DNA of 64,000 nt from the IMG/VR virus record IMGVR_UViG_3300037963_004147, positions 32,001-96,000 of that record; one strand, written 5' to 3'. Of this stretch, positions 28,201-61,624 are shown in pieces. The notes beneath the pieces were generated by a model. It saw nothing but the letters and a program-made list of their open reading frames with translations. It was not told the DNA's origin and did no database searches. This DNA comes from a virus. The position numbers and the translations under genes were made by a program. Within the stretch, counting starts at the first letter, position 1. Each line of letters begins with the position of its first letter.

Positions 28201-31069
28201 TGAAACTAGAGAAATGCTAATTAATAAGGCAGCTCAGAAAGTTTTAGAATTATCAACAGAAAAAGATCCTCAAAAGTTATTTGAGTTTATGTTAGAATTT
28301 GATAATGAAGGTTTATTTACTGGTAGATATGTTAAAGAGGTTGGAAGTAAATACTATAATATAATGAAAGAATTAAGGAAACCATTATATGATGATAATG
28401 GTCAACCTTATCAATATAGAGATGTTACTGATATAAATGAAGCTGATCCTGCAGATGTTGAATATAATATAAGATTAGCTAAAGCTAAACAAAGATATGG
28501 TGATTTTTGGAGTGCTGAAACAATAGGTCCTGATGGAACGCCAGTTCATGGAAAATATCATAAGTATACTGATGAGTTTATTGCTGCAAGAAAAAAACAT
28601 GAATACTTTGTTGCAGTAGGTAGAAATGGTATATGGAAAAGAAAGCCTGAAATATCTGATGCTGCTTGGGGTAAGTATACAGCTAAGTATAAAGTTAGTG
28701 GTCTTGAGCAAGAGAGTAGAACTTTTTCTGTTAATGATGCAGATGGAAATCCAACAGGAGCAATTAGAAAAGATGAGCTTTTTCCACAGGTTAGAAAAGA
28801 ATTTATAGAAAAAATAATTACTGAGGATCTAAAAAGTGAAAAGTATAAAGCAATTCAAGCAGATAAAAGTGCATTAGGTTTAGCACGTAAAGAGTTCTAT
28901 GATTTATTTGTAGATCTTTATGAGAATCAATTATTAACAAAATTACCTAAAGCCACACGACATCAAATGTTAGGAAAAGTACCTTTGATTAGAGGTAGAT
29001 GGGCACAAGATCTTAAAGGTAAAGGTAATGTATTTACAAAAATGTATGCTAAAACAAGTAGAGGTGTTAAAAATTTCTTTACTACAACGCAGCAACAAAA
29101 GGTTATTCAACTTGATTCTGACAATAATTTAATAGATCAGCTACCTATATTTTATACCGGAAATCCTAGAAGTGATGAGGCACTAGCTGCGATAGATGAT
29201 CAGATTCAAGCTTTAAAAGATAAAAGACAAAATGGTGATATTAAAATAGAACCTTATAAAAAAGAGCTTGCACTACTAGAAGGGCAAAGAAAAAAGATAG
29301 AAAATAAACCATCTTTAGGTGAAGTAAATAAAGATATGGGTAACGGTCTTCTTAAGTTTGCTGCAATGGCTGAACATTATGAAACCATGTCTACTGTAGA
29401 AGATACAATGCAAGCATTCTTAAGAGTGTTAAAAAAGAGATCTTATGAAAGTGCTGATAATATTAAAACAGATGTTAAAGATGCACTTGGTAAATTAACA
29501 CCAGTAGGTACAATTAAAGGTGAAGATTCAAAAACATTTCAGAGAGCTAAGAAATGGATGAATATGGTTTATTATGATAATGATCAATTAACTCAAGGCT
29601 TTATAGATAAAGCAGCATCTGGTCTTATTAAGTTTTCTTCTTTATCTTATGTAGCATTTAACCCTTTTGGTAACTTTAATAATTATGTTCTAGGCCGTGT
29701 CAATGATAATATTGAAGCAATAGGTGGTAGATTTTATTCTGCTCAAGCATATAAAAGAGCTAGTATAGAATATAATAAAAGAGCGATTCCAGATTTAATC
29801 CATAGACTTGCATCTGCAAATCCTAAAGATAAACTTCTTAATAGAGGAGATTATGATCCAAGACTACCATCAAGTAAATATGAAGCATTTGTTGAATACT
29901 ATAGAATGATGGATGAGTCAACAGATATACGTGAATCTGGATCACAAGTAGATAGAATCCAAAAATCAAGATTTGCTAAAATGATGGATTGGGGTTATAC
30001 TTTGCAGGATGCAGCTGAGTGGAATGTTCAAACTAAAGTAGGTATGGCAATGTTAATGGATACTTATATTATGAATAAGAAGACTGGTAAAATCTTGAGT
30101 TTGTATGATGCTCATACATTTGATGCAAAAGATAAAAGACCTAAGCTAATAGATGGCTTTACTACTATAGTTAAATATAATCCAAAGAATGTTGATGAAA
30201 ATGGTAAACCTAAACAAATTGAAGAAATAGGTGAGTATAATGATGAGTTTAGATATGACCTTAGAAATAAAATCCGTGAGGTTAATAAACAAATTCATGG
30301 TAACTATGCTGAAGAAGATAGAATGGTTTTACAATCTAGCACAGTTGGTAAGTTAGGAGCACAGTTTCACAAGTGGGTTATGCCTGCAGCTAGAGCTAGA
30401 TTTCAAAGAGAATACTTTGATGAGAATTTAGGTTGGATGGAAGGTAGATATCTATCTTGGTTTAAGTTCATGGCCTGGTCTACAAAAGAGATGGCAAAAG
30501 GTAATATGAAATTCAATAAGTATAAAGATGATTTCTTAGAAGATTATGGTTATATAGAAGATGGAGATGTTCAAGAAAATCAAAGAGCTATGAATAAACT
30601 ATTTGGTTTCTATAGAACTATGGGAGAAATAGGAATTATAATGCTAACGGTATTGTTAAAAGATCTTTTAATAGCTGCATTCCACGGTGATGATGATGAT
30701 AGTGACACTGTAAAAAGACTTAAAAATATTGCAATGTATCAGGCAGATAGAACTTATAAAGAATTAATATTATTTGTTCCTGTTCCTGATGGTTTACAAC
30801 AAATGATGCAAATGGTTAAGTCTCCAATAGCTTCTACAAGAACACTGGGTGAACTAGGTGAAGCATTATCTTTAACATATATGACTCCTCTATCATGGCT
30901 TACTTCTAGTGATGATGAGTTTTATGCTAATTCAGATTATGTTTATCAAAGAGGATCTAGAGCTGGTGAATTGAAAGTATTTAAAAACTGGCAAGATGCA
31001 TTACCTGCTATATACACATATAAAAAGTGGATTAACTATCTTGAAATGCAAAACTTCTTCATTAAGTAA
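25280..31069 (+). CDS. Large virion protein with degenerate zincin and PD-(D/E)xK nuclease domains
   Basis: 1929 aa. EEILH (25949-25963) is an HExxH variant. AGSIDLLL...VVDLKTSK...QVNLY is a RecB/PD-(D/E)xK-type motif. Confidence 0.7.
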   Translation: MARCINKNLQEFKNIAEVFKSPIVANIVITGWQDLNSTDQIPTIQQASEFAKNSETAYNLKRKDFAEAVYNNLSNKGIITKFKGRYFIVQSNNAVYDPGIRKFNLNRLKGYLRANNIPLNVVSTAVRGKAMEVKIHDDLFTPSDILPESRSYGTPHTRQVVAHLLKLFPQVNVEFLSVKDAKKLHDKLPESQKANVNFDNVNSFFVNGTAVLIKGRVTDTTAIEEILHPFVDGFYTSKPEIFNSLYNEAVKNFPELNAGIQSAYSDRRGFSERHRQLELVTQALSRHFNNEYENNPTKSFKDRIKDFIDWFVSIIENLSSVFNGRNIDYFRGDQALLEQEQREDRLEQEDVVAVKRINVNSISGNPTLSDIAKLLNTSDIEFDVNAAPKVDTKVRYNLSEEKSRIYDYVIKRSNGIQQELIENFFLAARETNKLVDELSVGTIERDADGNLISPIIVLDEATHTYMDLTDPSKKITSTTQAIKGQMSREKQEENDLNLKLGNDFDKILEGLVTDVTSAELFDKMEILNEEQFGKAYASMQASLAGLMKDNTVAIPQVVVYDKATGIAGSIDLLLIEPDGKVRVVDLKTSKYSKNDPFYKTILKEVNAKDPNFGILPEDSVLKQKGIADSLSIEQTHNLQVNLYGRMLENMGYTLSEKPASTYHIKVDVTGKGKNQKFQGEFKPEGEELHKMSENVPYLDAIIPYNVDVVSKERIDEARKGKEDSTYDTTLPPDQQNPLDDAPTSPEFEVITQALRDYRKGLIKRQDALSMLKGNVFLGRHKTVEQLQESIQNSINVITVAMTQGPKTRSAVYASLMRDALRQVDEFQQYVEDPINFSKPEYISYVLNFDEFIKTFEGLYSLQNSKELNRTQVRLAFKLQTRFNELVGVGDKEGVIDKAVTDYVRDTVARRSSYNFTEDQLDNIMKLGKDIGVIDYQARDLATTATLLNDGTPDTLLSIMDKIYKAKKQELLDKIETREMLINKAAQKVLELSTEKDPQKLFEFMLEFDNEGLFTGRYVKEVGSKYYNIMKELRKPLYDDNGQPYQYRDVTDINEADPADVEYNIRLAKAKQRYGDFWSAETIGPDGTPVHGKYHKYTDEFIAARKKHEYFVAVGRNGIWKRKPEISDAAWGKYTAKYKVSGLEQESRTFSVNDADGNPTGAIRKDELFPQVRKEFIEKIITEDLKSEKYKAIQADKSALGLARKEFYDLFVDLYENQLLTKLPKATRHQMLGKVPLIRGRWAQDLKGKGNVFTKMYAKTSRGVKNFFTTTQQQKVIQLDSDNNLIDQLPIFYTGNPRSDEALAAIDDQIQALKDKRQNGDIKIEPYKKELALLEGQRKKIENKPSLGEVNKDMGNGLLKFAAMAEHYETMSTVEDTMQAFLRVLKKRSYESADNIKTDVKDALGKLTPVGTIKGEDSKTFQRAKKWMNMVYYDNDQLTQGFIDKAASGLIKFSSLSYVAFNPFGNFNNYVLGRVNDNIEAIGGRFYSAQAYKRASIEYNKRAIPDLIHRLASANPKDKLLNRGDYDPRLPSSKYEAFVEYYRMMDESTDIRESGSQVDRIQKSRFAKMMDWGYTLQDAAEWNVQTKVGMAMLMDTYIMNKKTGKILSLYDAHTFDAKDKRPKLIDGFTTIVKYNPKNVDENGKPKQIEEIGEYNDEFRYDLRNKIREVNKQIHGNYAEEDRMVLQSSTVGKLGAQFHKWVMPAARARFQREYFDENLGWMEGRYLSWFKFMAWSTKEMAKGNMKFNKYKDDFLEDYGYIEDGDVQENQRAMNKLFGFYRTMGEIGIIMLTVLLKDLLIAAFHGDDDDSDTVKRLKNIAMYQADRTYKELILFVPVPDGLQQMMQMVKSPIASTRTLGELGEALSLTYMTPLSWLTSSDDEFYANSDYVYQRGSRAGELKVFKNWQDALPAIYTYKKWINYLEMQNFFIK

Positions 31070-45391: not shown

Positions 45392-45478
45392 TTAAGTTAT
45401 TAAATATAGGATAATGCCTATGATAATCATAAGCAAAATCCTATGCATAATTGTAAACATTAATCCTTCTTCTTCCAT
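45392..45478 (-). CDS. Small membrane peptide (not in ORF track)
   Basis: 28 aa MEEEGLMFTIMHRILLMIIIGIILYLIT; TAATG overlap with the polB stop. Confidence 0.5.
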   Translation of the reverse strand: MEEEGLMFTIMHRILLMIIIGIILYLIT

Positions 45479-47478
45479 TAAAATAATTCTAATTGATTAA
45501 TACTAACTGATAATATATTATTTATCTCAGATTCAATTGCTTTACTATAATAAGCAGTATCTACCTTGTAGTCTTCCCACTTAGGTTTGATATCTATCTC
45601 ATTATATAAAGTCTGCATCCATTTACCAGATTCTAATTGAATTTCTCTATTATCATTCTTATTAACTTTAATTATCTTAACGCTATCTCCACCGGATTTA
45701 GATATATAATATCTATTTGTTTTTTGAAGGTCTTTCTCAAAGAAATTACCATCTATTATAGATCTTGAAACTTGCTTCCAATTACCTTTGGATTTACCTC
45801 CAATGCAGTAATCTAATATATTACGATTCTTTTTCAGATAATCTTCAGGAAGAATATCTTTTACAAAGTAGTTATATATTGCTTTTTTAATAACAAGTTT
45901 AGATTTATTTTTATGCAACATTAAATCATGGAAATTAAACCGTCCCTTTAATTTAACAGGAGCATATAGAAACTTAGATTTTTTTACTTTAAATAAATAA
46001 TGAGGATTCTTTTCCTTCATCTTTCTCCATGCAGTTATATCAACTTCTTTAAATTCATTTACAGCAATGTAATTGTTAACATCACCTAAAACAATCTTCT
46101 GATATGTATCATGTTCAAGATTTAATTGAGTTATAACTTCCCATTCATTACAAATCTTTAAATAAAGATCTTTCTTATCTTTTGGGATTCTAATCTCAAC
46201 ACCATCCGTATTTTGTAATAAACCAACAGCTTCAGGTATCCCATCAAGTATCATATCATATAACATCATTAGGCTTAGTTGGCCATTTAAAGTTATACGC
46301 ATACATAATTCTGGGTCATAAAAGAAACTATTCTCTTCATTACTCAAACCGAATGTTGAATTAAGTATAATTTTATATACATAATTCATAGGATTAGACT
46401 TTGGAATTTTAACTCTTTCATCAAAGAACCATTCATATTGATCACAAAACTCTTTCTTTGGGAAATGAGCTGGTGACCATTGATTTCTAATACAAAGATT
46501 AGGATAAAAACTAGTAACATCTGAAGTCATAATAATATGATCCTCATCAGATTTATAAACAGCACTCTTTCTAGCACCGTGAATACCACCTAATGCAAAA
46601 GTTGTATGTACACCTTTATGTTCTAGTTCATATCTAAATTGACCTTTAAGATTCATTGCATCTAATTCAAGACATTTAAATCTTTCAAGAGCAGCTTTAA
46701 ACACGGGAGACTTAAATTCTATATAAGGAAGTATAAGATCTTTAACCTTAATAGTATTTCTATAAGTCTTCATGCTTTTAATCTCTCTAGGATGCATGTT
46801 TAACTTCTTACCTAAATAATAGGCAAATAACTCTTTAGCAATCTTTGGTTCTGAGGCACTAAATAAATTAATACCATACTGTGATGTTAACTCTTTACGT
46901 AATTTAATTTCTGATTTAGATCTGTTAAATATTTCTTTAGTAGATGCTACATCATTAATACAATATTTTACAATTGTATTTAACTCTTCTTTAGTTTTAA
47001 TTTCAGTTTCATGATGTATAGGCATATCTAAAAGATTTTGCCAATCCATACTAAACTGAATCCATTTAAGACTAGAACGTTTAGCAACATTATCCCAGTG
47101 ATGTAATTTAAATAAATCAATTTGACCTATCTGCAAATGCCAGGGAGCAAATACACCCCACTCTTTTTTATTTTGTCTAGCAATTGTTTCTTGAGCAAAT
47201 TTATAAATTACTTCTGCTATTGCACATCCGGACATATTAGACCATAAATCACAATTATTAAGTATATACTGAGTAACTTGGGCATCAAAGGCTAAGCCAT
47301 TAAATGATATATGCCATTGTTTCTCATCTTTATTAGTGTGTAAAAATTCTATAAACTCTTCAAAATCATTTTGTAGATCATGAACAATAAACTTCTTTCT
47401 TTCAGAAGTTTTATAATGTTCAAATACTGCAACAAAACAATTAGACAAAGTTTCATAATCCATTATCCAATGTGTCAT
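45478..47478 (-). CDS. polB: Family B DNA polymerase with 3'-5' exonuclease
   Basis: ExoI DYE, ExoII FNG..FD, ExoIII YC.ND; polymerase motifs SDVTSFYPN, KIILNSTFG, NTDG. C-terminal QLELF. Confidence 0.9.
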   Translation of the reverse strand: MTHWIMDYETLSNCFVAVFEHYKTSERKKFIVHDLQNDFEEFIEFLHTNKDEKQWHISFNGLAFDAQVTQYILNNCDLWSNMSGCAIAEVIYKFAQETIARQNKKEWGVFAPWHLQIGQIDLFKLHHWDNVAKRSSLKWIQFSMDWQNLLDMPIHHETEIKTKEELNTIVKYCINDVASTKEIFNRSKSEIKLRKELTSQYGINLFSASEPKIAKELFAYYLGKKLNMHPREIKSMKTYRNTIKVKDLILPYIEFKSPVFKAALERFKCLELDAMNLKGQFRYELEHKGVHTTFALGGIHGARKSAVYKSDEDHIIMTSDVTSFYPNLCIRNQWSPAHFPKKEFCDQYEWFFDERVKIPKSNPMNYVYKIILNSTFGLSNEENSFFYDPELCMRITLNGQLSLMMLYDMILDGIPEAVGLLQNTDGVEIRIPKDKKDLYLKICNEWEVITQLNLEHDTYQKIVLGDVNNYIAVNEFKEVDITAWRKMKEKNPHYLFKVKKSKFLYAPVKLKGRFNFHDLMLHKNKSKLVIKKAIYNYFVKDILPEDYLKKNRNILDYCIGGKSKGNWKQVSRSIIDGNFFEKDLQKTNRYYISKSGGDSVKIIKVNKNDNREIQLESGKWMQTLYNEIDIKPKWEDYKVDTAYYSKAIESEINNILSVSINQLELF

Positions 47479-48611: not shown

Positions 48612-49606
48612 TATATATATTGTTTTTGTGTTAAAAATATATAGGGCAGGCTGTAATCTTTCTCTGAATAATGATAGTTGGCTTCTTGCAATGTAATAAA
48701 TAATCCTTCAGCCCAAGCACCCATAGTAGACTCTAGTACATCAAATACATAAACCTGATTATACTTGTCTATTACTACAAACTTAAACAAAATTTCATAA
48801 TTATCTTTATTTTCTTGCTGTAAATATTCAAAAACTAATTTATAATATATAGCAGCTTGCATCCAATAATTATAAAAGTCTATTGTATCATTAAACTCAG
48901 AAATAGTCTTACCGGTTGTCTTTAAATCACAAATAATAACTTTTTTATTTTCATGATCTACTTTAAAGTAATCTATAAAACCATGTAAACCAAAGTTAAA
49001 ATTCTTCAAACTACAATTTAAGTATTTCTCACAATGAACTTCTATAGAATCAAGTTCAAAATCTGTTTGTTTATTTTCTTGATCTCCAAACAAACTCATT
49101 ACTTCTTTATTTGATTTTAGTATCTCAACTTGACGTTTACACTTTTCTAATGTATCATTATCAATAACATCTACATTTGAATTGTTTAGAAATTTCCAAT
49201 AAGGTTTAAAGTCTTCAACTTTAATCTTAGCAATTCTTTGCTCATCAGTTTTAAGAGACTGATATAAATTCATTTCTTTCAATGAATCAAGAATTACAAA
49301 ATCTTCAATTTTATCTAAATCAACCTCATCTGTATGAAGAGTCATATCCTTCATTACTTTTCTAACATTATCACTAGGTGACTTACCAGGAACAATATTA
49401 AATTTATTCTCTAGATTATTAGGCTCAAATAGTAAACAATGAATTAACTTACCTTCTATAAGATGTTTATCAGTTTGGATCTCACGATCTTTTAATATAT
49501 AATCTTTATAAAATAAAGACGGGGAAAATTGTATTTTATTTAATGAAGAATAACTAAAGTTAAAATCTTTAGCATAGAACTCTTCTTCTTTTTGTTTATC
49601 AATCAT
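48611..49606 (-). CDS. PD-(D/E)xK exonuclease (RecE/Cas4-like)
   Basis: FSYSSL, G..IH, E...LHGFID...ICDLKT, YWMQAAIY motifs. Confidence 0.8.
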   Translation of the reverse strand: MIDKQKEEEFYAKDFNFSYSSLNKIQFSPSLFYKDYILKDREIQTDKHLIEGKLIHCLLFEPNNLENKFNIVPGKSPSDNVRKVMKDMTLHTDEVDLDKIEDFVILDSLKEMNLYQSLKTDEQRIAKIKVEDFKPYWKFLNNSNVDVIDNDTLEKCKRQVEILKSNKEVMSLFGDQENKQTDFELDSIEVHCEKYLNCSLKNFNFGLHGFIDYFKVDHENKKVIICDLKTTGKTISEFNDTIDFYNYWMQAAIYYKLVFEYLQQENKDNYEILFKFVVIDKYNQVYVFDVLESTMGAWAEGLFITLQEANYHYSEKDYSLPYIFLTQKQYI

Positions 49607-50240
49607 TCTTAACTATTTTACCATCTTTTGTGAAGATGAGGTTATCTGTATTTCTTGAATTAACTATTATATTTTTTCTGTTAGTTCTAGTATATATGTA
49701 TCTATGCTTGGCATAATTCCCATCATGTATATATCCCATATCTAACATTTGTTTTTTATTATAGTTATTCTTTCCACTTTTTCTAGATACTTGTCTATTG
49801 GTATTAGGATCTATATATCTAGGATTCTTGCCAGTTAATCCATTGTAGTTCCAGTTAGATGCTCTATACAAACCACCATCATGATTCAATGCTGTATCTG
49901 CATATGTCAATAGCATTCCCCATCTATTATCTAGTTTCTTTATACTTTGACTAATAAGAAATGATCCTGAATTTTCAGGCCTATCATCACGTAAACAAAA
50001 TCTACTTAATGATAATACACTTCTGTGGTTACAGCTAACTGATTTTGCAGCTCCTGCTGGTGGAGGATTCCAAACTGATACACCATGTAATGTATGAGGA
50101 TCTCCTTTATAGTATAAGCCAAAAACATTTGTTGCTACATTACCCATGCCGTTTGCATAGTGCCAGTTTTCTACAAAGCTTTTTGCTATGTCTTTACTTA
50201 TGGGTTTAACATCCCATTGATTTTTAATTAGTTTCATCAT
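49599..50240 (-). CDS. Mom-family GNAT-fold DNA (adenine) modification protein
   Basis: AKSFVENWHY, LSRF, NSGSFLISQSIK, TYAD...HDGGLYRASNW match Mom-like proteins. Confidence 0.75.
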   Translation of the reverse strand: MMKLIKNQWDVKPISKDIAKSFVENWHYANGMGNVATNVFGLYYKGDPHTLHGVSVWNPPPAGAAKSVSCNHRSVLSLSRFCLRDDRPENSGSFLISQSIKKLDNRWGMLLTYADTALNHDGGLYRASNWNYNGLTGKNPRYIDPNTNRQVSRKSGKNNYNKKQMLDMGYIHDGNYAKHRYIYTRTNRKNIIVNSRNTDNLIFTKDGKIVKND

Positions 50241-50507: not shown

Positions 50508-51341
50508 TTAAAATATATATCTAATTGTATCAAGATTGAAATAGCAAGAGTATAACTGTTTAAACTCCTCAAGTAATCTTGTTTTATGTTTTATAGGATA
50601 TCTCATAATACCTTTGCTATTCTTTTTTTCATAAGCCCTTCTCATAAGCTCTTGTGCTTCTGGTGAAGCTTTAGCCATTTGATTAGCATGATTAGTTAAT
50701 GCAATTACTTCACATTTATTTTCACCTGCTATTTTAGCTACCATATGAAATAGTTCTTGATATTCTTCTTTCCATCCTGGATAAAATACTAATGGACTAT
50801 AATTAACATGAACTTCCCATCCTAATATTTTAAGCCTATTAATATCATGAATTCTTGACTTTATGCCTTGCATCTTAGGTTCAAGTATATTTGAATACTT
50901 TTGTGGCATTAAACTAACTCTTACTCTAGGTGCTTTATTAAAATGTAAAACATCTAGTTTTAAACGCTTAGGGTATTTAGTAGCCATTGTTGTATTTAAT
51001 CTAGGATGATCATCATACCTTTTAAGGTAATCAATTAAAGGTTCTGGCAATTTCTTTTGCATTAATACTAAATCTGTATTGCATGCTATATCTACCATAG
51101 TATATATAGGATCCTGTTGATCTGGGACTTTGGTAAAACCTTTTTCCCATTCTACAACAGACTGAAATATTTCATCAACATTTTCATTTACAAAGACTCT
51201 ATGACCATTATATCTAGACATATAACAATAGGTATCTACACAACCTCCAAAGCATCCGTAGATTAAATTGGGAGCTATGCAGTTTGCACTATTATTATTG
51301 TTTTTAGTAATTAAAGTTTTAGTTTTTTGATACTTTATCAT
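50508..51341 (-). CDS. Spore photoproduct lyase-like radical SAM protein
   Basis: GCFGGCVDTYCYM cluster motif, DIACNTD (SPL E-x-x-C-x-x-D), ATK, RVSLMP, VNYSP, MRY, C-terminal YIF. Confidence 0.8.
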   Translation of the reverse strand: MIKYQKTKTLITKNNNNSANCIAPNLIYGCFGGCVDTYCYMSRYNGHRVFVNENVDEIFQSVVEWEKGFTKVPDQQDPIYTMVDIACNTDLVLMQKKLPEPLIDYLKRYDDHPRLNTTMATKYPKRLKLDVLHFNKAPRVRVSLMPQKYSNILEPKMQGIKSRIHDINRLKILGWEVHVNYSPLVFYPGWKEEYQELFHMVAKIAGENKCEVIALTNHANQMAKASPEAQELMRRAYEKKNSKGIMRYPIKHKTRLLEEFKQLYSCYFNLDTIRYIF

Positions 51342-51421: not shown

Positions 51422-52660
51422 TTAAAATGGAAGATCATCTAATGGACCTTCACTTATTTGATATCCTTCTTTTAACTTTATAGATTCAAAATCAACAGTT
51501 AAAGTTTTAGAATTTTTAAATCCTGCATTTTGACCAATAACATAATTAAATACAGCTTCTGCAATTTTTCTATATGCAAATGATGTTAATGCATTTTCTT
51601 TATGCAGCTCTTTGCATAGATGATCATAACCAAATATTCTTGATCTATCCCATCTACAACTAAAGCCTGAAAGTCTTTTTCTTAATGCTTTAACATTTAC
51701 AGAATTCCAATTCTTACCATATCTTAGCCAATCTTCATAAAAGAAGAATAAACATGCTAGTTTATCAATAGATTTTTCAACATTACAATTTGACATTATT
51801 TCTAATCCCATCATTACATTTTCTGGATCAGCACTTTTAAACATAGCTTCTAGACTTTTATATTGTTCTTCAGTAAGAACAACAGAATCTTCATTACATA
51901 TTTTTACTAAATCTGTATCTAATATGATTTTTTGGTCATCGGTTATATTTCTTAAAGTATTTAGTTGATCTACATTAGAATAAATATACATGTTTTCATT
52001 TCCATGTTTTATATTTTGTTCTAAATCTCTATAACTTTTTTGTACAGTACTTCTCAAATTTTGAATCTCTGTAATATTATCACAGTTATATCTATATTGA
52101 AAAGCTACACGGAATCTTGCATCTATATCTTTTATACTTGTAATGAATTCAGATAGTGCAGACTTTAACTCTTGAGTCATATGATCCGCTATTTCTTTTA
52201 GATACTTTTTAAAAAGATCTTTTGTAAGAAAAGTGTAGTAACTATAATCTGCCATGCTTTCAATAAATCTTTGAGATACAATTAATAAATCAGCTTTATC
52301 TGGCTTCCTTGTAACTTTAACATTATATTTATCTTTCAGATTATTAACCTTCATTGTTGGTAAATCTAACTTTGGAAATCTATATATAGACTTATCTTTT
52401 ATATCACCTATTTCAGATAATTCAAACCCAAGTTGTGAAGCATCAATATTATATCTCCAACGAGATTCATTATGAATAACTTCAAATCCCTTGAAATAAT
52501 TAAAACCTACATCATCTTGTATAAGTTCAGCTTTTGTAGTATTACAAATCTGAGTTTTTGAATTAGCAAATGAATTCATTCCAATCATTCTTTTAGCTCC
52601 TGCAGCTTCTTGACTTAAGCATTCATCTCTTAATATTATTTCAAAATTATATATTCTCAT
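51422..52660 (-). CDS. BRCT-like domain protein with SxDxEN helical motif and DDLPF tail
   Basis: SIYRFPKLDL...KVTRKPDKADLLIVS (BRCT-like), LTEEQYKSLEAMFKSADPENVMMGLEIM, C-terminal DDLPF. Confidence 0.6.
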   Translation of the reverse strand: MRIYNFEIILRDECLSQEAAGAKRMIGMNSFANSKTQICNTTKAELIQDDVGFNYFKGFEVIHNESRWRYNIDASQLGFELSEIGDIKDKSIYRFPKLDLPTMKVNNLKDKYNVKVTRKPDKADLLIVSQRFIESMADYSYYTFLTKDLFKKYLKEIADHMTQELKSALSEFITSIKDIDARFRVAFQYRYNCDNITEIQNLRSTVQKSYRDLEQNIKHGNENMYIYSNVDQLNTLRNITDDQKIILDTDLVKICNEDSVVLTEEQYKSLEAMFKSADPENVMMGLEIMSNCNVEKSIDKLACLFFFYEDWLRYGKNWNSVNVKALRKRLSGFSCRWDRSRIFGYDHLCKELHKENALTSFAYRKIAEAVFNYVIGQNAGFKNSKTLTVDFESIKLKEGYQISEGPLDDLPF

Positions 52661-53685
52661 TTTAAATATTTTTTATATTCTGGTTTAACACTTACTTTGA
52701 ATACATAAAGCTCTCTATTATGTATAGATATTTCTTTACGTACTGTTTTTTCTAGATATCTAAATGATTCACTATTTAGCTTTTCTTCTTTTTCAAGTTT
52801 CATGATCATATCTTCTGCTGAAGAATGATACAATTCACTTAGTTCAGATTTTTCTAACCAATACTTTACATCTTTATCTCTATTAAATTTATACGTATAA
52901 CTATACACAGTTTGAGCTAATTCCCACATTAAATGTGGTTTGTTTTTATAATTAATAGTTGGAATAATTTTAGCAGCAACTGCTATATTTTCATCATCAT
53001 GTGATTCTACCCAAGTATTTATTTCTTTCACTAAATCTTCAGTTAGATCTATTTGATTAGCAGACGCATGTAAAAGATTTTCTTCATCTATAACTTCTAT
53101 TTCACTGGTATCTATAAGATATGCAATATTCAAAGCTAATCCTGTAATACCCCATTCATCCATTAAAGTTATAGGGTTTGCACAATTATAGCTTCGTATA
53201 CCACGATCATTCCATTTGTCATCCCATATAACTGGATTATGATGATTCTTTATTATACCACTACTTGGAACATCTTTACCATTAAAAGCTTCATAATTCC
53301 ATAATCTATACATAAGCTTAGTGGTTTTTATTTTATCACCATTAGTAAACTTTTGATAGAAGTCATCATTAGTTATTATAAAATCAGCTTTTTCATAGTC
53401 ATTTGTTATAGTAACTTTATGTTCTTTACAAGCAGCTTTTAATCTATCTTGTGTAACAGAACAACCTGGCATTATAAAAGCTCTTTTGTAGTTCTGTATT
53501 TTAGTACCATCAATAGTTTCATCTGTCAGCAAGTCTCTTACTTTATTAAAAGTAGTTTTATCTTGCGTTATAAGCACATCATCTACTTGACTGGAAGTAA
53601 TGACCCCATAAAAGGGGTCACTATCCAAGCCAAAATGTTTTAGTGCATCATTATTATAATCTTGATAAACATTTTTATTTGCCAT
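52657..53685 (-). CDS. BRCT-like domain protein, paralogue of 51422
   Basis: RAFIMPGCSVTQDRLKAACKEHKVTITNDYEKADFIIT; LTEDLVKEINTWVESHDDENIAVAAKII. Confidence 0.6.
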   Translation of the reverse strand: MANKNVYQDYNNDALKHFGLDSDPFYGVITSSQVDDVLITQDKTTFNKVRDLLTDETIDGTKIQNYKRAFIMPGCSVTQDRLKAACKEHKVTITNDYEKADFIITNDDFYQKFTNGDKIKTTKLMYRLWNYEAFNGKDVPSSGIIKNHHNPVIWDDKWNDRGIRSYNCANPITLMDEWGITGLALNIAYLIDTSEIEVIDEENLLHASANQIDLTEDLVKEINTWVESHDDENIAVAAKIIPTINYKNKPHLMWELAQTVYSYTYKFNRDKDVKYWLEKSELSELYHSSAEDMIMKLEKEEKLNSESFRYLEKTVRKEISIHNRELYVFKVSVKPEYKKYLK

Positions 53686-53686
53686 A

Positions 53687-54964
53687 TTATTTTATAGTCA
53701 TTTTAATTATCTCAGGCTTCATCATAAGTTTATTAAACTTAGCTTTGTTACCATTAAATATAGTTCTCACAACTAAATACTTAAGATCATTTGTGAAATA
53801 GTCTTTTGTGCATAAAGTTTCTAATCTATCAGTTATTTTTTGATTGATTGTATTATCCTTTGAATACACAACAGCGAAGTTTGCAAGTCTTGTTGCAAGA
53901 GTTGATGCAATATCTGCACGATATTCATCATCTTTTCCTATACATCCTGTTAGTTCACCAAGAATATATTGTTCATTATCATGAGTCAATAAATCTTTTG
54001 GAGTAACAAGTTTATCTAACTTATTATTAATAAATGTAGTAAACATAGATGCAAATTCATCTCCAACACTACCTTCACCAATCATTTGAATATAAGGTAA
54101 GTTATCTTCAAAATTTTCAAAGCTAGATATAGCATTAAAGAATGTAGTTATTGCTCTTGCATTTGTTTCTTGCGTTACAAGCTCTGGATGAAGTAGCATA
54201 AAGTTAATACATCTTGTATCAATACCTGCTTCTTCTGCCCAACGAGCCCATACTTCAGTATCATATTGCAGATTAGCTGTAATATAACGTGTCTTCTGTG
54301 CAGCATCAACTGAATTAACCATATAGTCTCCGTTATCCGGATTTGCGGTTAATACAATATGCCAGTCTTTTGGTAAAGTCCAAGAGATATACGTCTGACG
54401 ATCTATCAGCTCCATCACGGCTTGAATAAATCTAACGTCTGCACGATTCCAATCATCAAGAAGAAGGATTCCACCTTTCTTCTTACCAGAAATCCACTCA
54501 GGTGCACAATAAGACATTCTATTCTTACCGGTTAGTTTAAAACCATTCTTTAAATAATCACTTACTGCAAGTTCACTTACCCACTGCCCAATCTTCTTTG
54601 TAACAGAAGTACCTTTAGCTAGTGCAGCAACGTCTGATGATGCAGCTTTCTTACCCGCACCATAATTTACAGTATCTTGATTTTTATTCAATGATATAAC
54701 TTGTTCTTTATACATTTGGAACTCTCTCACTGGAAAGCCAACAAGATCACCAAGCTCTTCAATTTGAGCTAAATTTAATTTAACAAAATCAAGGTCATGA
54801 TCCTCAGCAATTTGTTTTACTGTGGATGTTTTACCAATACCCGATTCACCAAGAACTTCTACTGATACAGGAAGTTTTCCCTGATCTTGTAGAAATCTAT
54901 TATTAGTTATCATGTGGGACATAAATCCCTTTAAATCATCAATGTTAAGATTAACTTGTGCCAT
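53687..54964 (-). CDS. MoxR-like AAA+ ATPase
   Basis: Walker A GESGIGKT, GDLVGFP, Walker B ILLLDDWNRA, sensor LTANP, DAAQKTR. Adjacent to a VWA gene. Confidence 0.85.
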   Translation of the reverse strand: MAQVNLNIDDLKGFMSHMITNNRFLQDQGKLPVSVEVLGESGIGKTSTVKQIAEDHDLDFVKLNLAQIEELGDLVGFPVREFQMYKEQVISLNKNQDTVNYGAGKKAASSDVAALAKGTSVTKKIGQWVSELAVSDYLKNGFKLTGKNRMSYCAPEWISGKKKGGILLLDDWNRADVRFIQAVMELIDRQTYISWTLPKDWHIVLTANPDNGDYMVNSVDAAQKTRYITANLQYDTEVWARWAEEAGIDTRCINFMLLHPELVTQETNARAITTFFNAISSFENFEDNLPYIQMIGEGSVGDEFASMFTTFINNKLDKLVTPKDLLTHDNEQYILGELTGCIGKDDEYRADIASTLATRLANFAVVYSKDNTINQKITDRLETLCTKDYFTNDLKYLVVRTIFNGNKAKFNKLMMKPEIIKMTIK

Positions 54965-54974
54965 AATTGTTTTT

Positions 54975-56132
54975 TTAATTTAGTTGTATTTTTTTTCCTG
55001 GTAATTCATCATTTATTCTACTCCTAGAACTATGTACCCAAAGTGTATTATTTGGACAATCTTCTGGAGGCCATGCTTCACCATCTGTTAAATATATAAG
55101 GGCTGTGTATTTTCCCTTTTGTTCATTATAATGATCAATAACTGGTTGAAATGATGTACCACCTCTACCATGTATTTCCCAATCTTTCTTTGGATTAAAA
55201 TCCTCTACTTTATTTAGCCGTGTATCACATTGTGCTACAGTAATCTTATGACCTGTTTTGTGCATATGGCATAATTCACTAAAGAATTCTTTCAACTCCT
55301 CATTACATACTGAACCTGATGTATCAACACCAACTAGTATATGATTTTTAAATTTAATTTTTAATCCAGGGTTTTCTATGTACCTTTTATTATACTTTCT
55401 TCTTAGTTTCTTTGTATAAACTATAGAAGAATTACCAACAAATCTTCTTAGATAAGCCTTCCAATTAAATTTAGGAGGTTCAATATGTCTTAATCTTTTA
55501 ATAAGATCACTGAGCTCTCCAGGAATGTTTCCTTGTCTTTTTTCTGTTAATTCAGCATTCTCTTTAAGTTGATGCTCAATTTGTTTTTGAATTAACTTTT
55601 TTTCTGCTTCTGGAATATCTTCAACTTCTTCCCAAGTTTTATGACAATATGGACTTTCACCATCCATTTGATCAAGCATACTTTCTAATGATGGCGATGT
55701 TCCATCTTGTTTAGCTTCTTCTAAAAGTTTATAATATTCAAAAGTACCAGCTCTTTCAGGAAGATCAAGTTCAGGAAACGTATCCATTGTTATACCACCG
55801 TCCGGTAAATCATTAGCATTTATATATTGATTAATCTCAAGATCTGCAGCTATATTAAATAACTTCTTATCTGCAAAAGAATCTCTAACTAAAAGATGAC
55901 CAAATGATATATGTAATAATTCATGCTTCATCAATCCAATTCTGTGTCTTTCTGAAAGATCAGATACAAAATCTGGATTTACTGTAAGTTGAACACCAAT
56001 ACCATTTTTGGATACACCAGCTGTAGGTATTTTATCAGTATAAACCTTATTAAGGCCAATCAAAAAGAGCCCGTAAAAGGGCTCTTCAAAAATTAATGTT
56101 TTTGTTGCTTTAGATATTAAGTTTGCTACCAT
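54975..56132 (-). CDS. Metallopeptidase-like + VWA domain protein (DUF2201-type)
   Basis: HELLH...NIAADLEINQ N-domain; MIDAS DTSGS, GRGGTSF, YLTDG. Confidence 0.85.
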   Translation of the reverse strand: MVANLISKATKTLIFEEPFYGLFLIGLNKVYTDKIPTAGVSKNGIGVQLTVNPDFVSDLSERHRIGLMKHELLHISFGHLLVRDSFADKKLFNIAADLEINQYINANDLPDGGITMDTFPELDLPERAGTFEYYKLLEEAKQDGTSPSLESMLDQMDGESPYCHKTWEEVEDIPEAEKKLIQKQIEHQLKENAELTEKRQGNIPGELSDLIKRLRHIEPPKFNWKAYLRRFVGNSSIVYTKKLRRKYNKRYIENPGLKIKFKNHILVGVDTSGSVCNEELKEFFSELCHMHKTGHKITVAQCDTRLNKVEDFNPKKDWEIHGRGGTSFQPVIDHYNEQKGKYTALIYLTDGEAWPPEDCPNNTLWVHSSRSRINDELPGKKIQLN

Positions 56133-56572
56133 TTTATATTAAGTTTTGCTTCTATAAATTCATATCCTGTTAAACACGAAGCTACATGACTTTCACATAT
56201 CTTCTTAAATATTTGTTTAGCAATAGGATTTTTAGATTCCTTTACAGTTTTATGTAGGTTCTTAAGAAGAAGTGCTGTTTCATCATCCCAGAAATTATAC
56301 CAACGATTAGAATTTCCTATATTTGGTATTCCTTTAGTAAGGGGTTGTAAAATTGTTTTATCTTTATCATTCATAAATTTAACATAGAAATCTCTATCTT
56401 TATTACTTAATAATTTTAAAAACAAAAAATGAAATACAGGATCAGGTTTTATATTAGATATATTTTCTAGTGCTATATTTACATCTTCATTAGATTTTGA
56501 ATTTAGTGCTTTACTAATACTCATAAAACCATCTACATCAAGTATATTTTTTAATTCATTTATCTCCATCAA
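56126..56572 (-). CDS. Hypothetical protein with the SxxxE(N/D) helical motif
   Basis: LDVDGFMSISKALNSKSNEDVNIALENISN aligns with the helical motif of 51422 and 52657. Confidence 0.65.
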   Translation of the reverse strand: MMEINELKNILDVDGFMSISKALNSKSNEDVNIALENISNIKPDPVFHFLFLKLLSNKDRDFYVKFMNDKDKTILQPLTKGIPNIGNSNRWYNFWDDETALLLKNLHKTVKESKNPIAKQIFKKICESHVASCLTGYEFIEAKLNIKW

Positions 56573-56916
56573 TCTTCAATTTTAATTGTTCTTCTCATCC
56601 ATTCTGGACGAATCTTTTTATTTATGCAAACCAACCACTCTTTAGCAGTTGGAATATGATTATTACAATCTTCTTTTACATGTTGCTCACCAACATACCG
56701 TGTATATACAGTTTTACCATCAGAATTAGTAAAGGATTCTCCAAATATCTTTTCACATTCAAATATTCCTTCACTATGATGTCTATACATTCTATGATAA
56801 GAATTGCCAATCCAAGCTTTAGTTTCATCAAACCAATTATGGATATGCATATAGTCTTTTTCTAAACCACCCCATTTTTTTACAGATGATTTAGCATGTC
56901 TTAAAGGATGTGCCAT
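56569..56916 (-). CDS. His-rich protein (DUF6915-like)
   Basis: HP..HA.SS.KKWGG, IH.WFD.TK, HR..RHH.EG, EQHV.ED pattern. Confidence 0.7.
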   Translation of the reverse strand: MAHPLRHAKSSVKKWGGLEKDYMHIHNWFDETKAWIGNSYHRMYRHHSEGIFECEKIFGESFTNSDGKTVYTRYVGEQHVKEDCNNHIPTAKEWLVCINKKIRPEWMRRTIKIED

Positions 56917-57278
56917 TAAATTTCAAATTGCCAATCATGTTCCTCTACAGTTCTTTGACAATAAGCAAGTTCTACTTCATTTCTTTTTACATCCCAATGT
57001 ATCTGACCATAACCTCCTTCATTATTAACCCAATCTCCTACTTTATCTACATTACGGCATATCACAAAATATGCCCAATCTCTTAAAAGTTTATAATCAT
57101 TATGATCAAGTACTTGATTTGCTGCATCATTAGATAGATAACCATTAGCTGTCTCAAATTCTATATCACCCACATCTCCATCATCTCCTGATCCATCAAA
57201 GCCTACATTTACTAGATCTACATTTAAATCAAGAAGCTTTAGTCTCAACATCTTTTTTAATTCTTCGTTTCTTTCCAT
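56916..57278 (-). CDS. Acidic protein (DUF6878-like)
   Basis: FDGSGDDG and W.NNEGGYG motifs. Confidence 0.7.
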   Translation of the reverse strand: MERNEELKKMLRLKLLDLNVDLVNVGFDGSGDDGDVGDIEFETANGYLSNDAANQVLDHNDYKLLRDWAYFVICRNVDKVGDWVNNEGGYGQIHWDVKRNEVELAYCQRTVEEHDWQFEI

Positions 57279-58643: not shown

Positions 58644-58774
58644 AAAAAAAAAGATGCGGCAGGGGATAAGTCCTACGCCACCCTGCCTTAAGAAATAGTA
58701 CCGTCATTTAAAGGACTGCCTTATCTTACATCTTGCACATTATGTTTTACATTAAAACACCCACGCAACGCGGG
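58644..58774 (-). other. Structured intergenic RNA/terminator with possible pseudoknot
   Basis: Hairpins CCCGCG/CGUGGG and UGUUUUA/UAAAACA. Outer stem AAGAUGU/GCAUCUU encloses GGCAGGG/CCCUGCC, whose loop (AGGACUUAUC) is complementary to upstream GAUAAG and AGUCCU. Ends in a run of nine U. Confidence 0.6.
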
Positions 58775-58783
58775 AAAAAGATT

Positions 58784-59458
58784 TTACAGATCAAAGTCAT
58801 CACCTGCTGATGTTGTTGCAGGTTCAAATGAATCTGTATTATTTGAGGATTTCTTTGTAAGTTCTCTTACATGCTCCTCTTTATTAAATTTAAAGAGTCT
58901 ACTATTTTCAACATCTAATGCTTCCATAGCAACTCCATCTTTAGAGTTTCTTGGTAAAAATAAGTCATAATTAATATAACCTTCTTTATTTTCCCATTCT
59001 CTACCACCAACACATGCATTAAAGTATGTATCATCACCTGATAAAATAGCATTAGCTTGAACCATGAATTCTTCAATGGTATCTGCTTCAACATTATCAA
59101 GATCATTTCTCTTACCTAAAACCTCAGCTAAGAAAATCATACCTCTTAGAACTTCAGTATCTCTACTGATTTCTCTTCCACTTGGTAAAGTAGCATCCTT
59201 ATAAGGATAAGGACTCAATCTAATTCTACCAACTTGACCTTTATAACGAGGTCCATTTTGATCAGTGCTATCAACTAAGAAGCCCTCAAAGTCACCACCT
59301 AGTGGCTCTGATTCTACATGTAAGACTACATTATATGCATCTTTATCATATGGTGTTTGATCAAATGTAATGTTATTGATCTTCAATTTGTTGTTACCTA
59401 CTCCGATAACAGGTCTTGCTTTGCCTGAACCGGCACTCATGTCTTTTGTACTTAACAT
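58784..59458 (-). CDS. Putative single-stranded DNA-binding protein
   Basis: Beta-rich 224 aa with an acidic-aromatic tail GDDFDL, located between the AAA ATPase and primase genes. Confidence 0.5.
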   Translation of the reverse strand: MLSTKDMSAGSGKARPVIGVGNNKLKINNITFDQTPYDKDAYNVVLHVESEPLGGDFEGFLVDSTDQNGPRYKGQVGRIRLSPYPYKDATLPSGREISRDTEVLRGMIFLAEVLGKRNDLDNVEADTIEEFMVQANAILSGDDTYFNACVGGREWENKEGYINYDLFLPRNSKDGVAMEALDVENSRLFKFNKEEHVRELTKKSSNNTDSFEPATTSAGDDFDL

Positions 59459-59478: not shown

Positions 59479-60162
59479 TTATTGTTCATACTTGATTATA
59501 CAATCTTTTACATATTGTAAATCATTATCTATAAAGGATTCTTCAAACATATCCATGGGAGACTTACAAGTGTTATTCCCATCAGTTTGTGTTTCAAATC
59601 CATACTTTAATACACCATCTTCTTCTTTGATAACTCTACCAAATAATACAATGGAAAATAGACCCTCCAAAGTTAAAGCATTATCTATCATTTTACCAAC
59701 AGTTTTTGCTTTTACTTTTCTACGGCCATTCATGTCTGTTGAATCTTCTGAATGAGTCAAAAAGAAACAATATAAATCATCCCTCAAATCCTTTGGATAT
59801 TTTGCAACCTGAGCTAGGTTAGTAGCGATTGAGGTGAATTTATCATACCCTTTTTCTTGAGCTTTATCAAAATATTCAAAAGCAGACATATATTGCCAAT
59901 CATCTATAACTATATTAGTTATATGAGGCATATTATCATTAACATGTTTTAAAGCTTTAATAATACCTGCAGCTGATGACGCATTAGTCATATTACCTTT
60001 AGGATTATCTTTGCTTATTAATGTATAATTTTTCTTCCAACCTTTAAAAGGTAAAGGTTTATTTGCAATGTTGATCCAAAAAGTTTGTTTTGGATCTAAA
60101 TTTCTACCTGATGTAGATTTACCAGAGCCTGACTCTGCAACTACTAATACACTTTGTGCCAT
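59479..60162 (-). CDS. AAA_24/Sak4-like P-loop ATPase
   Basis: AESGSGKST, IVIDD, GYDKF, FLTH, KTVGKM, CKSP motifs. Confidence 0.8.
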   Translation of the reverse strand: MAQSVLVVAESGSGKSTSGRNLDPKQTFWINIANKPLPFKGWKKNYTLISKDNPKGNMTNASSAAGIIKALKHVNDNMPHITNIVIDDWQYMSAFEYFDKAQEKGYDKFTSIATNLAQVAKYPKDLRDDLYCFFLTHSEDSTDMNGRRKVKAKTVGKMIDNALTLEGLFSIVLFGRVIKEEDGVLKYGFETQTDGNNTCKSPMDMFEESFIDNDLQYVKDCIIKYEQ

Positions 60163-60164
60163 AT

Positions 60165-60671
60165 TTATTTATTTGCTATTTTTTCTAATGCTATTGCTAT
60201 TCTTTTTAAGACTTTGATCATATCATCATCTTTATCATCTGGATTTGGTAAGTCATCCAATTCAAAAATTGATTTGGTTTCTTTTTCATTTCTGTTTGTG
60301 ACATCATTGATAACAATTAATTCATTAACTGGTATCATATGCCTTTCAAAACCTGAATTGCTTGTAACTAATTCATATTCAGATTTCCAATGAGCATTAT
60401 ATTTGTGTAAATACAATGTTCTTTTTGGATCTTCTGATTCATAGTTTATACTAACAAATTCTGTATATATATCTTTACCCTTTTCAAGTTCACTTGGAAA
60501 GAATGATACATATAACTCATCTTTACCTGCTGGTCTATAAGCCATTTTAGGTATATATAGAGCATCAACATTTCCAGATTTTTGGAAATAATCTTCATGC
60601 TCCTGTCTAAGTTTTGCAACTTTTTCTTTTCTTTCTGCTGAAGTCATTATTTTATTTTTAGTACTTATCAT
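60165..60671 (-). CDS. Hypothetical protein
   Basis: 168 aa with a C-terminal LKRIAIALEKIA helix; coupled to the helicase gene. Confidence 0.7.
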   Translation of the reverse strand: MISTKNKIMTSAERKEKVAKLRQEHEDYFQKSGNVDALYIPKMAYRPAGKDELYVSFFPSELEKGKDIYTEFVSINYESEDPKRTLYLHKYNAHWKSEYELVTSNSGFERHMIPVNELIVINDVTNRNEKETKSIFELDDLPNPDDKDDDMIKVLKRIAIALEKIANK

Positions 60672-61624
60672 CTTCTTTCTTGTTGATCTGGTGTATCCAT
60701 TTCAGATATCTGCATATTTTCAAACTCACCTCTAAAGAAACTCATTCTTGCATCTCCATTTCTTGCTTTTAAAAAATGTAAAACTAAAGTTCTATCATCT
60801 TTTATTATATATCTGTCTGGTCCATAATATCTAATTTTTTGTTTAGCAGGACGGTTAATACCAATTAAGGTATCTGCATGTTGTAACATTGCATCAGCAC
60901 CAAATATATCTGATTCCAATACATAGTTTCCATACTTACCATCTACAGCTCTGTCCGGGTTATCAATATTTCTATTAAGTTGTGACAGTGCAATAAACAA
61001 ACATGGATAATCACGTTTACATTGTGTAAAAAACTCACCAAGTTCAAATAACATATCTAATCTATTATTTTGATAAGGTGCTCTTTTTACAAGTATTGTA
61101 TGATCCAGTGTTATTATTGTACGTTTACCTTTATGTTCATCCATATACATATCAACTTGTTCACGCATTTGGTTTACACTCATTGGTCTACTAATAATGT
61201 CTACCGGATTTTTCACACGTTGTTTAGCATATTGATGACAATCATTTATTATATCTTGAGAAAGAGTGCTGCCTGCACTACATAACTCTTTATATGTTTT
61301 GCCTGTCAATGAACTAAACTCTCTAATAGCCGATGTTCTTCCTACCATTTCAAATTGAAACTCAAGAACTCTGAAGTCATCATCTGGATTTAACATAAAA
61401 GATTCTCTTATGATTTGGTCTTTAATTAATGTTTTACCTGAACCAGGTCTTCCACCAATTACAGTAAGAGTATTCCATTCTAATCCATCTGTTGTAGCAT
61501 CATTAAACTTTGGCCACGGAGTATATATAGACTTTTCTAGTCCTTTTGATCTTTTGACCATATATTTAAGTGCTTCATTAAAAGAGGCGTATTGTCCTCC
61601 CCAAGCTGGTTTTATATTACTCAT
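60668..61624 (-). CDS. dnaB: DnaB-like SF4 helicase (C-terminal motor domain only)
   Basis: GGRPGSGKT, FQFEM, TLDH, LSQLNR, D..GAD, KARNG. Confidence 0.88.
   Translation of the reverse strand: MSNIKPAWGGQYASFNEALKYMVKRSKGLEKSIYTPWPKFNDATTDGLEWNTLTVIGGRPGSGKTLIKDQIIRESFMLNPDDDFRVLEFQFEMVGRTSAIREFSSLTGKTYKELCSAGSTLSQDIINDCHQYAKQRVKNPVDIISRPMSVNQMREQVDMYMDEHKGKRTIITLDHTILVKRAPYQNNRLDMLFELGEFFTQCKRDYPCLFIALSQLNRNIDNPDRAVDGKYGNYVLESDIFGADAMLQHADTLIGINRPAKQKIRYYGPDRYIIKDDRTLVLHFLKARNGDARMSFFRGEFENMQISEMDTPDQQERR

Follow-up and report, generated by a model that had tools for sequence, protein, structure and literature searches.

Within a 64,000-nucleotide stretch of viral DNA (positions 32,001 to 96,000 of the IMG/VR record IMGVR_UViG_3300037963_004147, hereafter the window), a MoxR-like AAA+ ATPase and a zincin-like metallopeptidase fused to a VWA domain are encoded side by side, and three proteins that we call p148, p342 and p412 are encoded on the two sides of this pair. 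Judging from profile comparisons, p342 and p412 are ancient full-length paralogs, and p148 is a paralog of their C-terminal domain. The pair itself is already known; for the protein family around it we found no published description. We tentatively propose, at a little short of an even chance, that the three proteins are clade-specific partners of the ATPase and peptidase, with a role on the DNA side.

The genes occupy positions 51422-57278, where a first-pass annotation of the window had described seven contiguous genes. We recovered the same seven open reading frames (ORFs), in the same order and with the same sizes, all on the minus strand, and the earlier assignments to DUF6878, DUF6915, peptidase-VWA and ATPase families agree with Pfam and PHROG matches. 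p148, p342 and p412 had no match to a curated family in Pfam, PHROGs or NCBIfam. Junctions between the genes mostly overlap by 1-7 nucleotides (nt), with gaps of 10 nt between the peptidase-VWA and ATPase genes and 1 nt between the ATPase and p342 genes. The seven genes and their motifs are listed below, from the first gene to the last; lengths are in amino acids (aa), HMM stands for hidden Markov model, MIDAS for metal ion-dependent adhesion site, pLDDT for predicted local distance difference test and SSB for single-stranded DNA-binding protein.

56916-57278, minus strand: DUF6878 protein, 120 aa (Pfam PF21798, 40.5 bits, cut-off 24.3)
56569-56916, minus strand: DUF6915 protein, 115 aa, with many conserved histidines (Pfam PF21866, 134 bits, cut-off 27; phrog_8143)
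56126-56572, minus strand: p148, a small protein that consists only of a copy of the helical domain seen at the C-terminus of p412-family members
56429-56551, minus strand: helix-turn-helix motif in p148, residues 8-48 (motif HMM)
54975-56132, minus strand: zincin-like metallopeptidase fused to VWA, 385 aa (DUF2201_N and DUF2201; phrog_1314)
55911-55925, minus strand: HELLH zinc-binding and catalytic motif, H70-H74, invariant in 56 relatives
55311-55325, minus strand: MIDAS, DTSGS, D270-S274, invariant in relatives together with a downstream TDGE
53687-54964, minus strand: MoxR-like / AAA_5-type AAA+ ATPase, 425 aa (phrog_1297)
54824-54850, minus strand: Walker A, GESGIGKTS, G39-S47, invariant
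54452-54469, minus strand: Walker B, ILLLDD, I166-D171, invariant
52657-53685, minus strand: p342 (AlphaFold pLDDT 87.6; 289 homologs)
52933-53055, minus strand: motif in p342, residues 211-251, the hairpin that opens the helical domain behind the BRCT-like fold
51422-52660, minus strand: p412, paralog of p342 with the same architecture (AlphaFold pLDDT 87.6)
51764-51886, minus strand: motif in p412, residues 259-299 (profile and structure comparison)
51425-51439, minus strand: C-terminal DDLPF of p412, of the same form as the tip of the bacterial SSB tail

Translation of p148 probably begins at its second codon, an ATG, and not at the TTG that is listed as its start.

Evidence for common ancestry of the three proteins came from families rather than from single sequences. 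Pairwise BLASTP was weak, giving E 0.003 for p342 against p412 and non-significant results for the two other pairs, and we therefore compared families through their profiles. p342 has 289 homologs, those listed being 46-83% identical to it. A word-index search returned 35 homologs of p412, and an exhaustive profile search extended this family to 921 representative clusters (defined at 50% identity) at E<=1e-3; for p148 the word index gave only two homologs, and further ones were taken from syntenic ORFs. A tblastn search with p342 and p412 found no match in 50,697 phage records. Profile-profile alignment with hhalign joined p148 to p412 (86% probability, E 4.5e-6) and p412 to p342 (49% probability, E 1.8e-4, 172 columns), compared with a best E of 0.002-0.01 among controls from 13 unrelated families of the same loci. 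Greedy extension of the alignments placed residues 15-342 of p342 collinear with residues 28-404 of p412, and aligned p148 to the C-terminal third of p412. The p148 HMM matched 35 of 143 p412-family representatives at E<1e-3 (best 9.4e-9, model positions 7-123), and the p342 HMM matched five of the 143 (best 1.7e-9), one of these alignments running from 41-322 against 53-356. Because these matches were accompanied by clean controls, with zero matches to the same representatives from 12 unrelated HMMs or to reversed and shuffled sequences, we regard the relationship as full-length for p342 and p412 and as confined to the C-terminal domain for p148. The motif that the first-pass annotation had noticed in the 148, 342 and 412 aa proteins thus reflects true homology, and p148 and p342 are linked only by way of p412.

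The window belongs to an uncultured marine phage whose complete genome is 114,909 bp long; among its 353 ORFs, a motif HMM recovered p148, p342 and p412 only. Their scores (E 2e-14 to 5e-18) are high by construction, since all three are in the model, and the informative outcome is that there was no further match, the next best ORF having E 0.61. The idea that the motif is a portable tag carried by many proteins of the genome was ruled out by this result.

The predicted structures of p342 and p412 (each with the same pLDDT, listed above) support a common architecture. In the model of p342, an N-terminal beta/alpha region is followed by a split BRCT-like fold at about residues 61-212, ARM/HEAT-like helices from about residue 211 and a basic C-terminal beta-hairpin; p412 is predicted to have an N-terminal beta domain, a BRCT-like fold at about 86-258 and a helical domain at about 259-380. 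Foldseek searches of the PDB with both models gave no significant whole-chain match, only local matches to the PARP1 BRCT domain. With VIA-align, for which Z 8 is the caution line and matches between helical proteins can be generic up to about Z 13, residues 61-212 of p342 matched the BRCT domains of XRCC1 (Z 6.7, 79/104 residues aligned) and PARP1 (Z 6.6, 80/96), and residues 86-258 of p412 matched those of PARP4 (Z 6.7, 74/97), PARP1 (Z 6.6) and XRCC1 (Z 6.5). More than 10 BRCT entries, among them REV1, TopBP1, MCPH1, ECT2 and the Sir4 H-BRCT, matched the same region of each paralog, at Z 5.6-6.7 overall and a root-mean-square deviation of 2.4-3.7 A. The BRCT-like segment that had been suggested for both proteins therefore has a counterpart in both predicted structures. 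The core fold is matched over 71-84 residues of BRCT domains that are 94-112 residues long (PARP1, PARP4, XRCC1, REV1, TopBP1). However, the matched spans in p342 and p412 far exceed one BRCT domain, which indicates that a large subdomain interrupts the fold.

The helices beyond the BRCT-like fold resembled ARM/HEAT repeats, with matches at Z 6.6-7.0 to STAG1 and beta-catenin for residues 211-288 of p342 and at Z 6.1-6.7 to AP-3 and beta-catenin for residues 259-341 of p412; across all such entries, which also included Pds5B, AP complexes and designed armadillo proteins, Z was 5.5-7.0 over 65-79 residues. Our assignment of both folds follows from their consistency between the paralogs and among many BRCT entries, and not from the scores. 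In the models, the helical domain begins with the shared motif, which is its first helix-turn-helix and follows the common ARM/HEAT pattern: hydrophobic positions and a small residue, then an acidic turn and an alanine-rich second helix. A search of BFVD with the p412 model returned four viral proteins with probability 1.00, from an uncultured Caudovirales phage, a crAss-like virus and, in two cases, a single Podoviridae sp. genome (A0A6J5LXR8, A0A8S5QMV2, A0A8S5TKB2 and A0A8S5TL70), and we conclude that the p412 architecture exists beyond this clade and is paired in at least one genome. ESM Atlas look-alikes of p412 and p148 all scored <0.9 and were uninformative.

The extreme C-terminus of p412 provides a second indication of a role near DNA. 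The protein ends in DDLPF, and residues 408-412 have a pLDDT <50 in the model. A terminus of the form [LI]-P-F, usually after D or N, is present in 52 of 125 full-length p412-family representative clusters and in about 20 of the 86 family members taken from the loci. The tip of bacterial SSB (D-D-D-I/L-P-F) is a hub that recruits many genome-maintenance proteins (Costes et al. 2010, PMC3000357). p412 shares its terminal peptide, at the extreme C-terminus and on a low-confidence, probably flexible tail, but lacks an OB fold and is itself no SSB.

Conservation of gene order was examined in 80 IMG/VR loci found with the p342 alignment and three more found with a distant p412 member. In all of them the block runs from helicase-side genes through Sak4-like, SSB-like, primase and RusA genes and an insert position to the peptidase-VWA, ATPase, p342 and p412 genes, followed 3' of p412 by a variably placed SPL-like gene, a PD-(D/E)XK exonuclease gene and two genes of no named function. 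Among the 80 loci, the ATPase gene is present in 80, the peptidase-VWA gene in 77 (the three others being cut at the contig end) and the p412 gene in 71. Only about 21 of these 80 loci have the DUF6878 and DUF6915 genes. The slot directly upstream of the peptidase-VWA gene holds an ORF of 95-118 aa in nearly all other loci, and these ORFs match the p148 HMM at E 1e-6 to 1e-20 and carry the motif at their N-terminus, only the loci L020 and L021 differing. A phmmer search had suggested that p148 is an optional gene, an interpretation that we rejected, as these shorter homologs fill the same slot.

Because the slot ORFs match the p148 HMM, the conserved unit comprises five genes: the p148 type, the zincin-VWA peptidase, the ATPase, p342 and p412. 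This five-gene order is kept in the 80 + 3 loci, all of which belong to one collinear clade. The DUF6878 and DUF6915 genes are a two-gene optional insert, accessory passengers outside the conserved core, and DUF6915 is also found in gp184 of Bacillus phage Tsamsa, with no MoxR or VWA gene within 6 kb. The proposal in the first-pass annotation that all seven genes form one module is therefore not upheld; the co-occurrence that it anticipated is seen for the motif proteins with the MoxR-like and DUF2201 proteins, in about 80 relatives, and does not extend to DUF6878 and DUF6915.

As far as sequence can tell, no catalytic, nucleotide-binding or MIDAS residue has been lost from the ATPase or the zincin-VWA protein. 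The 385-aa peptidase-VWA protein matched DUF2201_N (PF13203) at 71.1 bits against a cut-off of 23.2, DUF2201 (PF09967) at 59.2 against 26.4, and phrog_1314 at E 3.9e-65; a PDB sequence search with its profile gave no match. H70, E71 and H74 of the HELLH motif are unchanged across the 56 relatives, and MIDAS residues D270-S274 and the TDGE motif are conserved in 19-56 relatives. The ATPase is a P-loop AAA+ protein that matched phrog_1297 at E 3.8e-35. Its Pfam scores lie below the cut-offs (AAA_3, 18.2 bits against 27; AAA_5, 17.6 bits against 22). However, its family HMM matches the ATPases of cyanophage S-TIM54, phage AR9 and a Moorella phage at 4e-16 to 1e-7, and these do pass the AAA_5 cut-off; the HMM also links to N4 gp24. 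A profile search of the PDB matched midasin AAA modules at 1.2e-7. Among relatives, both Walker motifs are invariant (A, GESGIGKT; B, LLLDD), and about 120 residues separate them. Identity across the clade is 78-89% for the ATPase, 70-80% for the peptidase-VWA protein, 46-83% for p342, about 30% or less for p412 and lower still for p148.

Inserts in the genes of the pair were found in several relatives. The ATPase gene is split in L023 (905-2000), and also in L004 and L025, by an insert of about 1.1 kb encoding a GIY-YIG/NUMOD1 homing endonuclease, and the peptidase-VWA gene is split in L029 (4273-5402), and also in L030 and L031, by an insert of similar size encoding a LAGLIDADG endonuclease. 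They look like group-I-intron-like invasions of conserved genes. Phage genes that receive homing endonucleases are typically conserved and important ones.

MoxR/AAA_5 ATPases that act with a VWA adaptor are familiar from the cellular couples RavA-ViaA, CbbQ-CbbO and NorQ-NorD, in which the MIDAS is thought to grip the client. The pair studied here resembles them in joining a MoxR/AAA_5-like ATPase to a VWA protein, and differs in the N-terminal zincin peptidase on the VWA protein and in its context, which is phage DNA replication and not enzyme maturation. The same two proteins, with the same domains, intact HExxH, MIDAS and Walker motifs and adjacent co-directional genes, are present in other phages (N4 gp24/gp25, AR9 g028/g029 and the group 2.2 jumbo phages; PHROGs 1297 and 1314), and we found peptidase-VWA homologs in 373 phage records. 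In N4, Moorella phage MTATph1, S-TIM54, AR9 and Pag-Yong1 the ATPase gene precedes the VWA gene and the neighbors vary by phage. By comparison, the order is reversed here, with the peptidase-VWA gene first, and the ATPase is extended both by a long insert that separates Walker A from Walker B and by a long C-terminal region. The BRCT-like and ARM-like flanking family was not found beside the pair in these five phage records. A scan of contigs from metagenome-assembled genomes (MAGs) with the peptidase-VWA profile added five distant loci to the contigs of the clade, four of them with a homolog by the family HMM.

A further comparison is provided by the vWA-MoxR ternary conflict systems of multicellular bacteria, which have VMAP, iSTAND, FtsH or beta-propeller third components, a strict order of VMAP, MoxR and vWA, and a vWA protein that carries effector domains (Kaur, Burroughs, Iyer and Aravind 2020, PMC7159879). 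The likeness lies in a MoxR-vWA core with faster-evolving partners, and in paralogous adaptor domains common to neighboring genes, like effector-associated domains. The order here is different, however (small protein, VWA-peptidase, ATPase, p342, p412), and Pfam and NCBIfam scans detected no VMAP-C, iSTAND, effector or known conflict-system domain. The first-pass annotation knew of no functional description of such a module. This stands for the partner family, for which we found no description in print; the pair itself, however, is known from N4-like, jumbo and other phages. We found no tested function of the MoxR-like ATPase and metallopeptidase-VWA pair in the literature, and no paper joining DUF2201 with MoxR, or crAss-like phages with MoxR, BRCT or vWFA.

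What the three proteins do beside the pair can be postulated from these observations. By analogy with other MoxR-VWA pairs, the ATPase and the VWA-peptidase may act as a chaperone-like remodeler or protease, and the three helical-domain proteins would then be adaptors or clients that join the pair to replication or recombination intermediates. The BRCT-like fold could bind DNA ends or another protein, the ARM/HEAT-like domain could accommodate a peptide or the surface of a partner, and the DLPF tip might fill the SSB-tail-binding pockets of host or phage enzymes, so that the machine would assemble, strip or cleave proteins at SSB-coated DNA. In its most specific form, the BRCT/ARM-like proteins would be DNA-side adaptors of an AAA+/zincin machine that clears or cleaves proteins on the intermediates, with p412 mimicking the SSB tip to capture SSB-tail binders or to reach SSB-coated DNA; we consider this elaboration improbable as it stands. 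If the DNA-side adaptor reading is true, the machine would be a phage counterpart of Cdc48 with Wss1/SPRTN, an AAA+ unfoldase with a DNA-dependent metalloprotease, and would provide a first functional handle on the widespread pair of the N4 gp24/gp25 type. This pair is a core feature of N4-like phages, of many jumbo phages and of many mobile elements, and here it has a fixed partner set. In addition, a large unnamed protein family, that of the 921 clusters, gains a domain description.

The partnership is suggested by the adjacency of the genes, by the position of the three proteins on both sides of the pair, and by comparison with the crAss-like Cellulophaga phage phi14:2. The latter is the nearest cultured match of the DNA polymerase (32% identity) and has the same order of Sak4-like gene, unnamed gene and primase, and no match to the peptidase-VWA profile or to the p412 profile was found in it. 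Several observations weigh against this proposal. All loci that show the arrangement come from a single collinear clade, where the entire replication block is equally conserved; this weakens the case for partnership, as adjacency can be explained by descent together with local duplication. HMMs of p148, p342, p412 and the motif found no relative within about 5-6 kb in the five phage records named above, and no partner relative lies within about 5-6 kb in the distant bacterial and archaeal MAG loci, four of which have a peptidase-VWA homolog. The fold matches, at Z only 5.5-7, are under the VIA-align caution line, and there is no match of p342 or p412 to a Pfam BRCT family (E<=0.1) or ARM/HEAT model, nor to BRCT in NCBIfam. 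About 60% of the p412-family clusters are without the LPF tip; the SSB-like protein of the phage itself ends in GDDFDL and not in DLPF.

The alternative that draws most on these points, rather unlikely in our estimate, is that the three proteins are neighbors of the pair by descent: replication or recombination scaffolds, for example an SSB-tail mimic or hub, that are independent of the ATPase and peptidase and arose by local duplication within a frozen gene order. The collinearity of the block from helicase to polymerase in all loci would be expected in this case, as would the unrelated neighbors of the pair in the other phage and MAG loci examined, and a BRCT-like fold and an SSB tip suggest a DNA-side role that needs no ATPase. 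However, the only three motif proteins of the genome are placed on both sides of the pair and not in one tandem array, and phi14:2 gave no match to either of the two profiles.

The first-pass annotation had offered a different model, a host-takeover proteolysis machine whose MIDAS would hold the helical hairpin as a docking tag, with interchangeable adaptors that bring in host complexes for repair, defense or replication to be degraded. The intact and invariant HExxH and MIDAS motifs are consistent with such a machine, and the rapid evolution of p412 and p148 (about 30% identity or less, against 70-89% for the enzymes) is as expected of adaptors that face a target; moreover, a C-terminal LPF can serve as a degron for the AAA+ protease ClpXP in Streptococcus mutans (PMC5143411). 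However, nothing links the motif to the MIDAS, and in the predicted structures it is an ordinary ARM/HEAT-type hairpin within a folded domain, with an acidic turn generic to such repeats, rather than an exposed tag. The partner set is fixed in all relatives, at one small and two large proteins, with no exchangeable repertoire, and p342 is well conserved (46-83% identity). Both the location of the genes in the replication and recombination block and the SSB-like tail speak for a part in DNA transactions and not in general host takeover, and we consider this model quite improbable.

Least probable of all is a virion-assembly chaperone, in which the pair folds or processes structural proteins and its neighbors are irrelevant: this was proposed by Iyer et al. 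(2021, PMC7824862), who described a chaperone and co-chaperone for the group 2.2 jumbo phages, a role in tail development has been shown for the archaeal virus ATV, and in S-TIM54 the pair adjoins Hsp20 and a virion structural gene, but here replication genes surround the pair and the structural genes are on the other strand, an early promoter precedes g028/g029 in AR9, gp24/gp25 belong to the middle genes of N4 (PMC4193335), and the partner folds and the SSB-type tail point to DNA replication or recombination instead.

The five-gene core is located between the primase and RusA genes on one side and the exonuclease and DNA polymerase genes on the other, with an SPL-like radical-SAM enzyme and a Mom-like protein also downstream. 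The other main genes of the replication block are as follows.

60668-61624: DnaB-like helicase
59479-60162: Sak4-like annealing protein
58784-59458, minus strand: SSB-like protein, with the family C-terminus GDDFDL and no Pfam or PHROG match
45478-47478: DNA polymerase

The C-terminus of the SSB-like family is strictly conserved, as GDDFDL or GSDFDL. The Mom-like DNA-modification protein is encoded inside the block at 49599-50240 on the minus strand (PF25680, 102.7 bits). The SPL-like radical-SAM gene is at 50508-51341 on the minus strand (and, for example, at 14954-15787 in L027); in some relatives it lies right after p412 and in many it is about 5 kb downstream, and this variation in position between relatives indicates that the gene is mobile within the block.

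The stretch from the primase to p412 may be one transcription unit. Sites resembling sigma-70 promoters were not enriched, with 66 observed against 58.9 expected. Only two terminator-like hairpins were found on the coding strand, both weak, and they bracket this stretch: one at 58659-58774 (minus strand), between the SSB-like and primase genes, and one at 51430-51451 (minus strand), which overlaps the last codons of p412, those of its DDLPF tail.

Contigs of the clade that are about 115-120 kb long (L091, L092, L093/L095 and L094) have been binned in MAGs of Pseudomonadales, Flavobacteriales, Campylobacteraceae and Rickettsiales. Because they were probably mis-binned, these labels say nothing on the host. 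Elsewhere in the window, two giant ORFs are found on the plus strand, at 10027-25275 (5082 aa) and 25280-31069 (1929 aa); the three ORFs ahead of them are each about 1000-1100 aa long and lack PHROG matches. A single weak match, to an exonuclease family, was obtained for the 1929-aa protein, and the giant ORFs recall the huge virion proteins known from crAss-like and N4-like phages.

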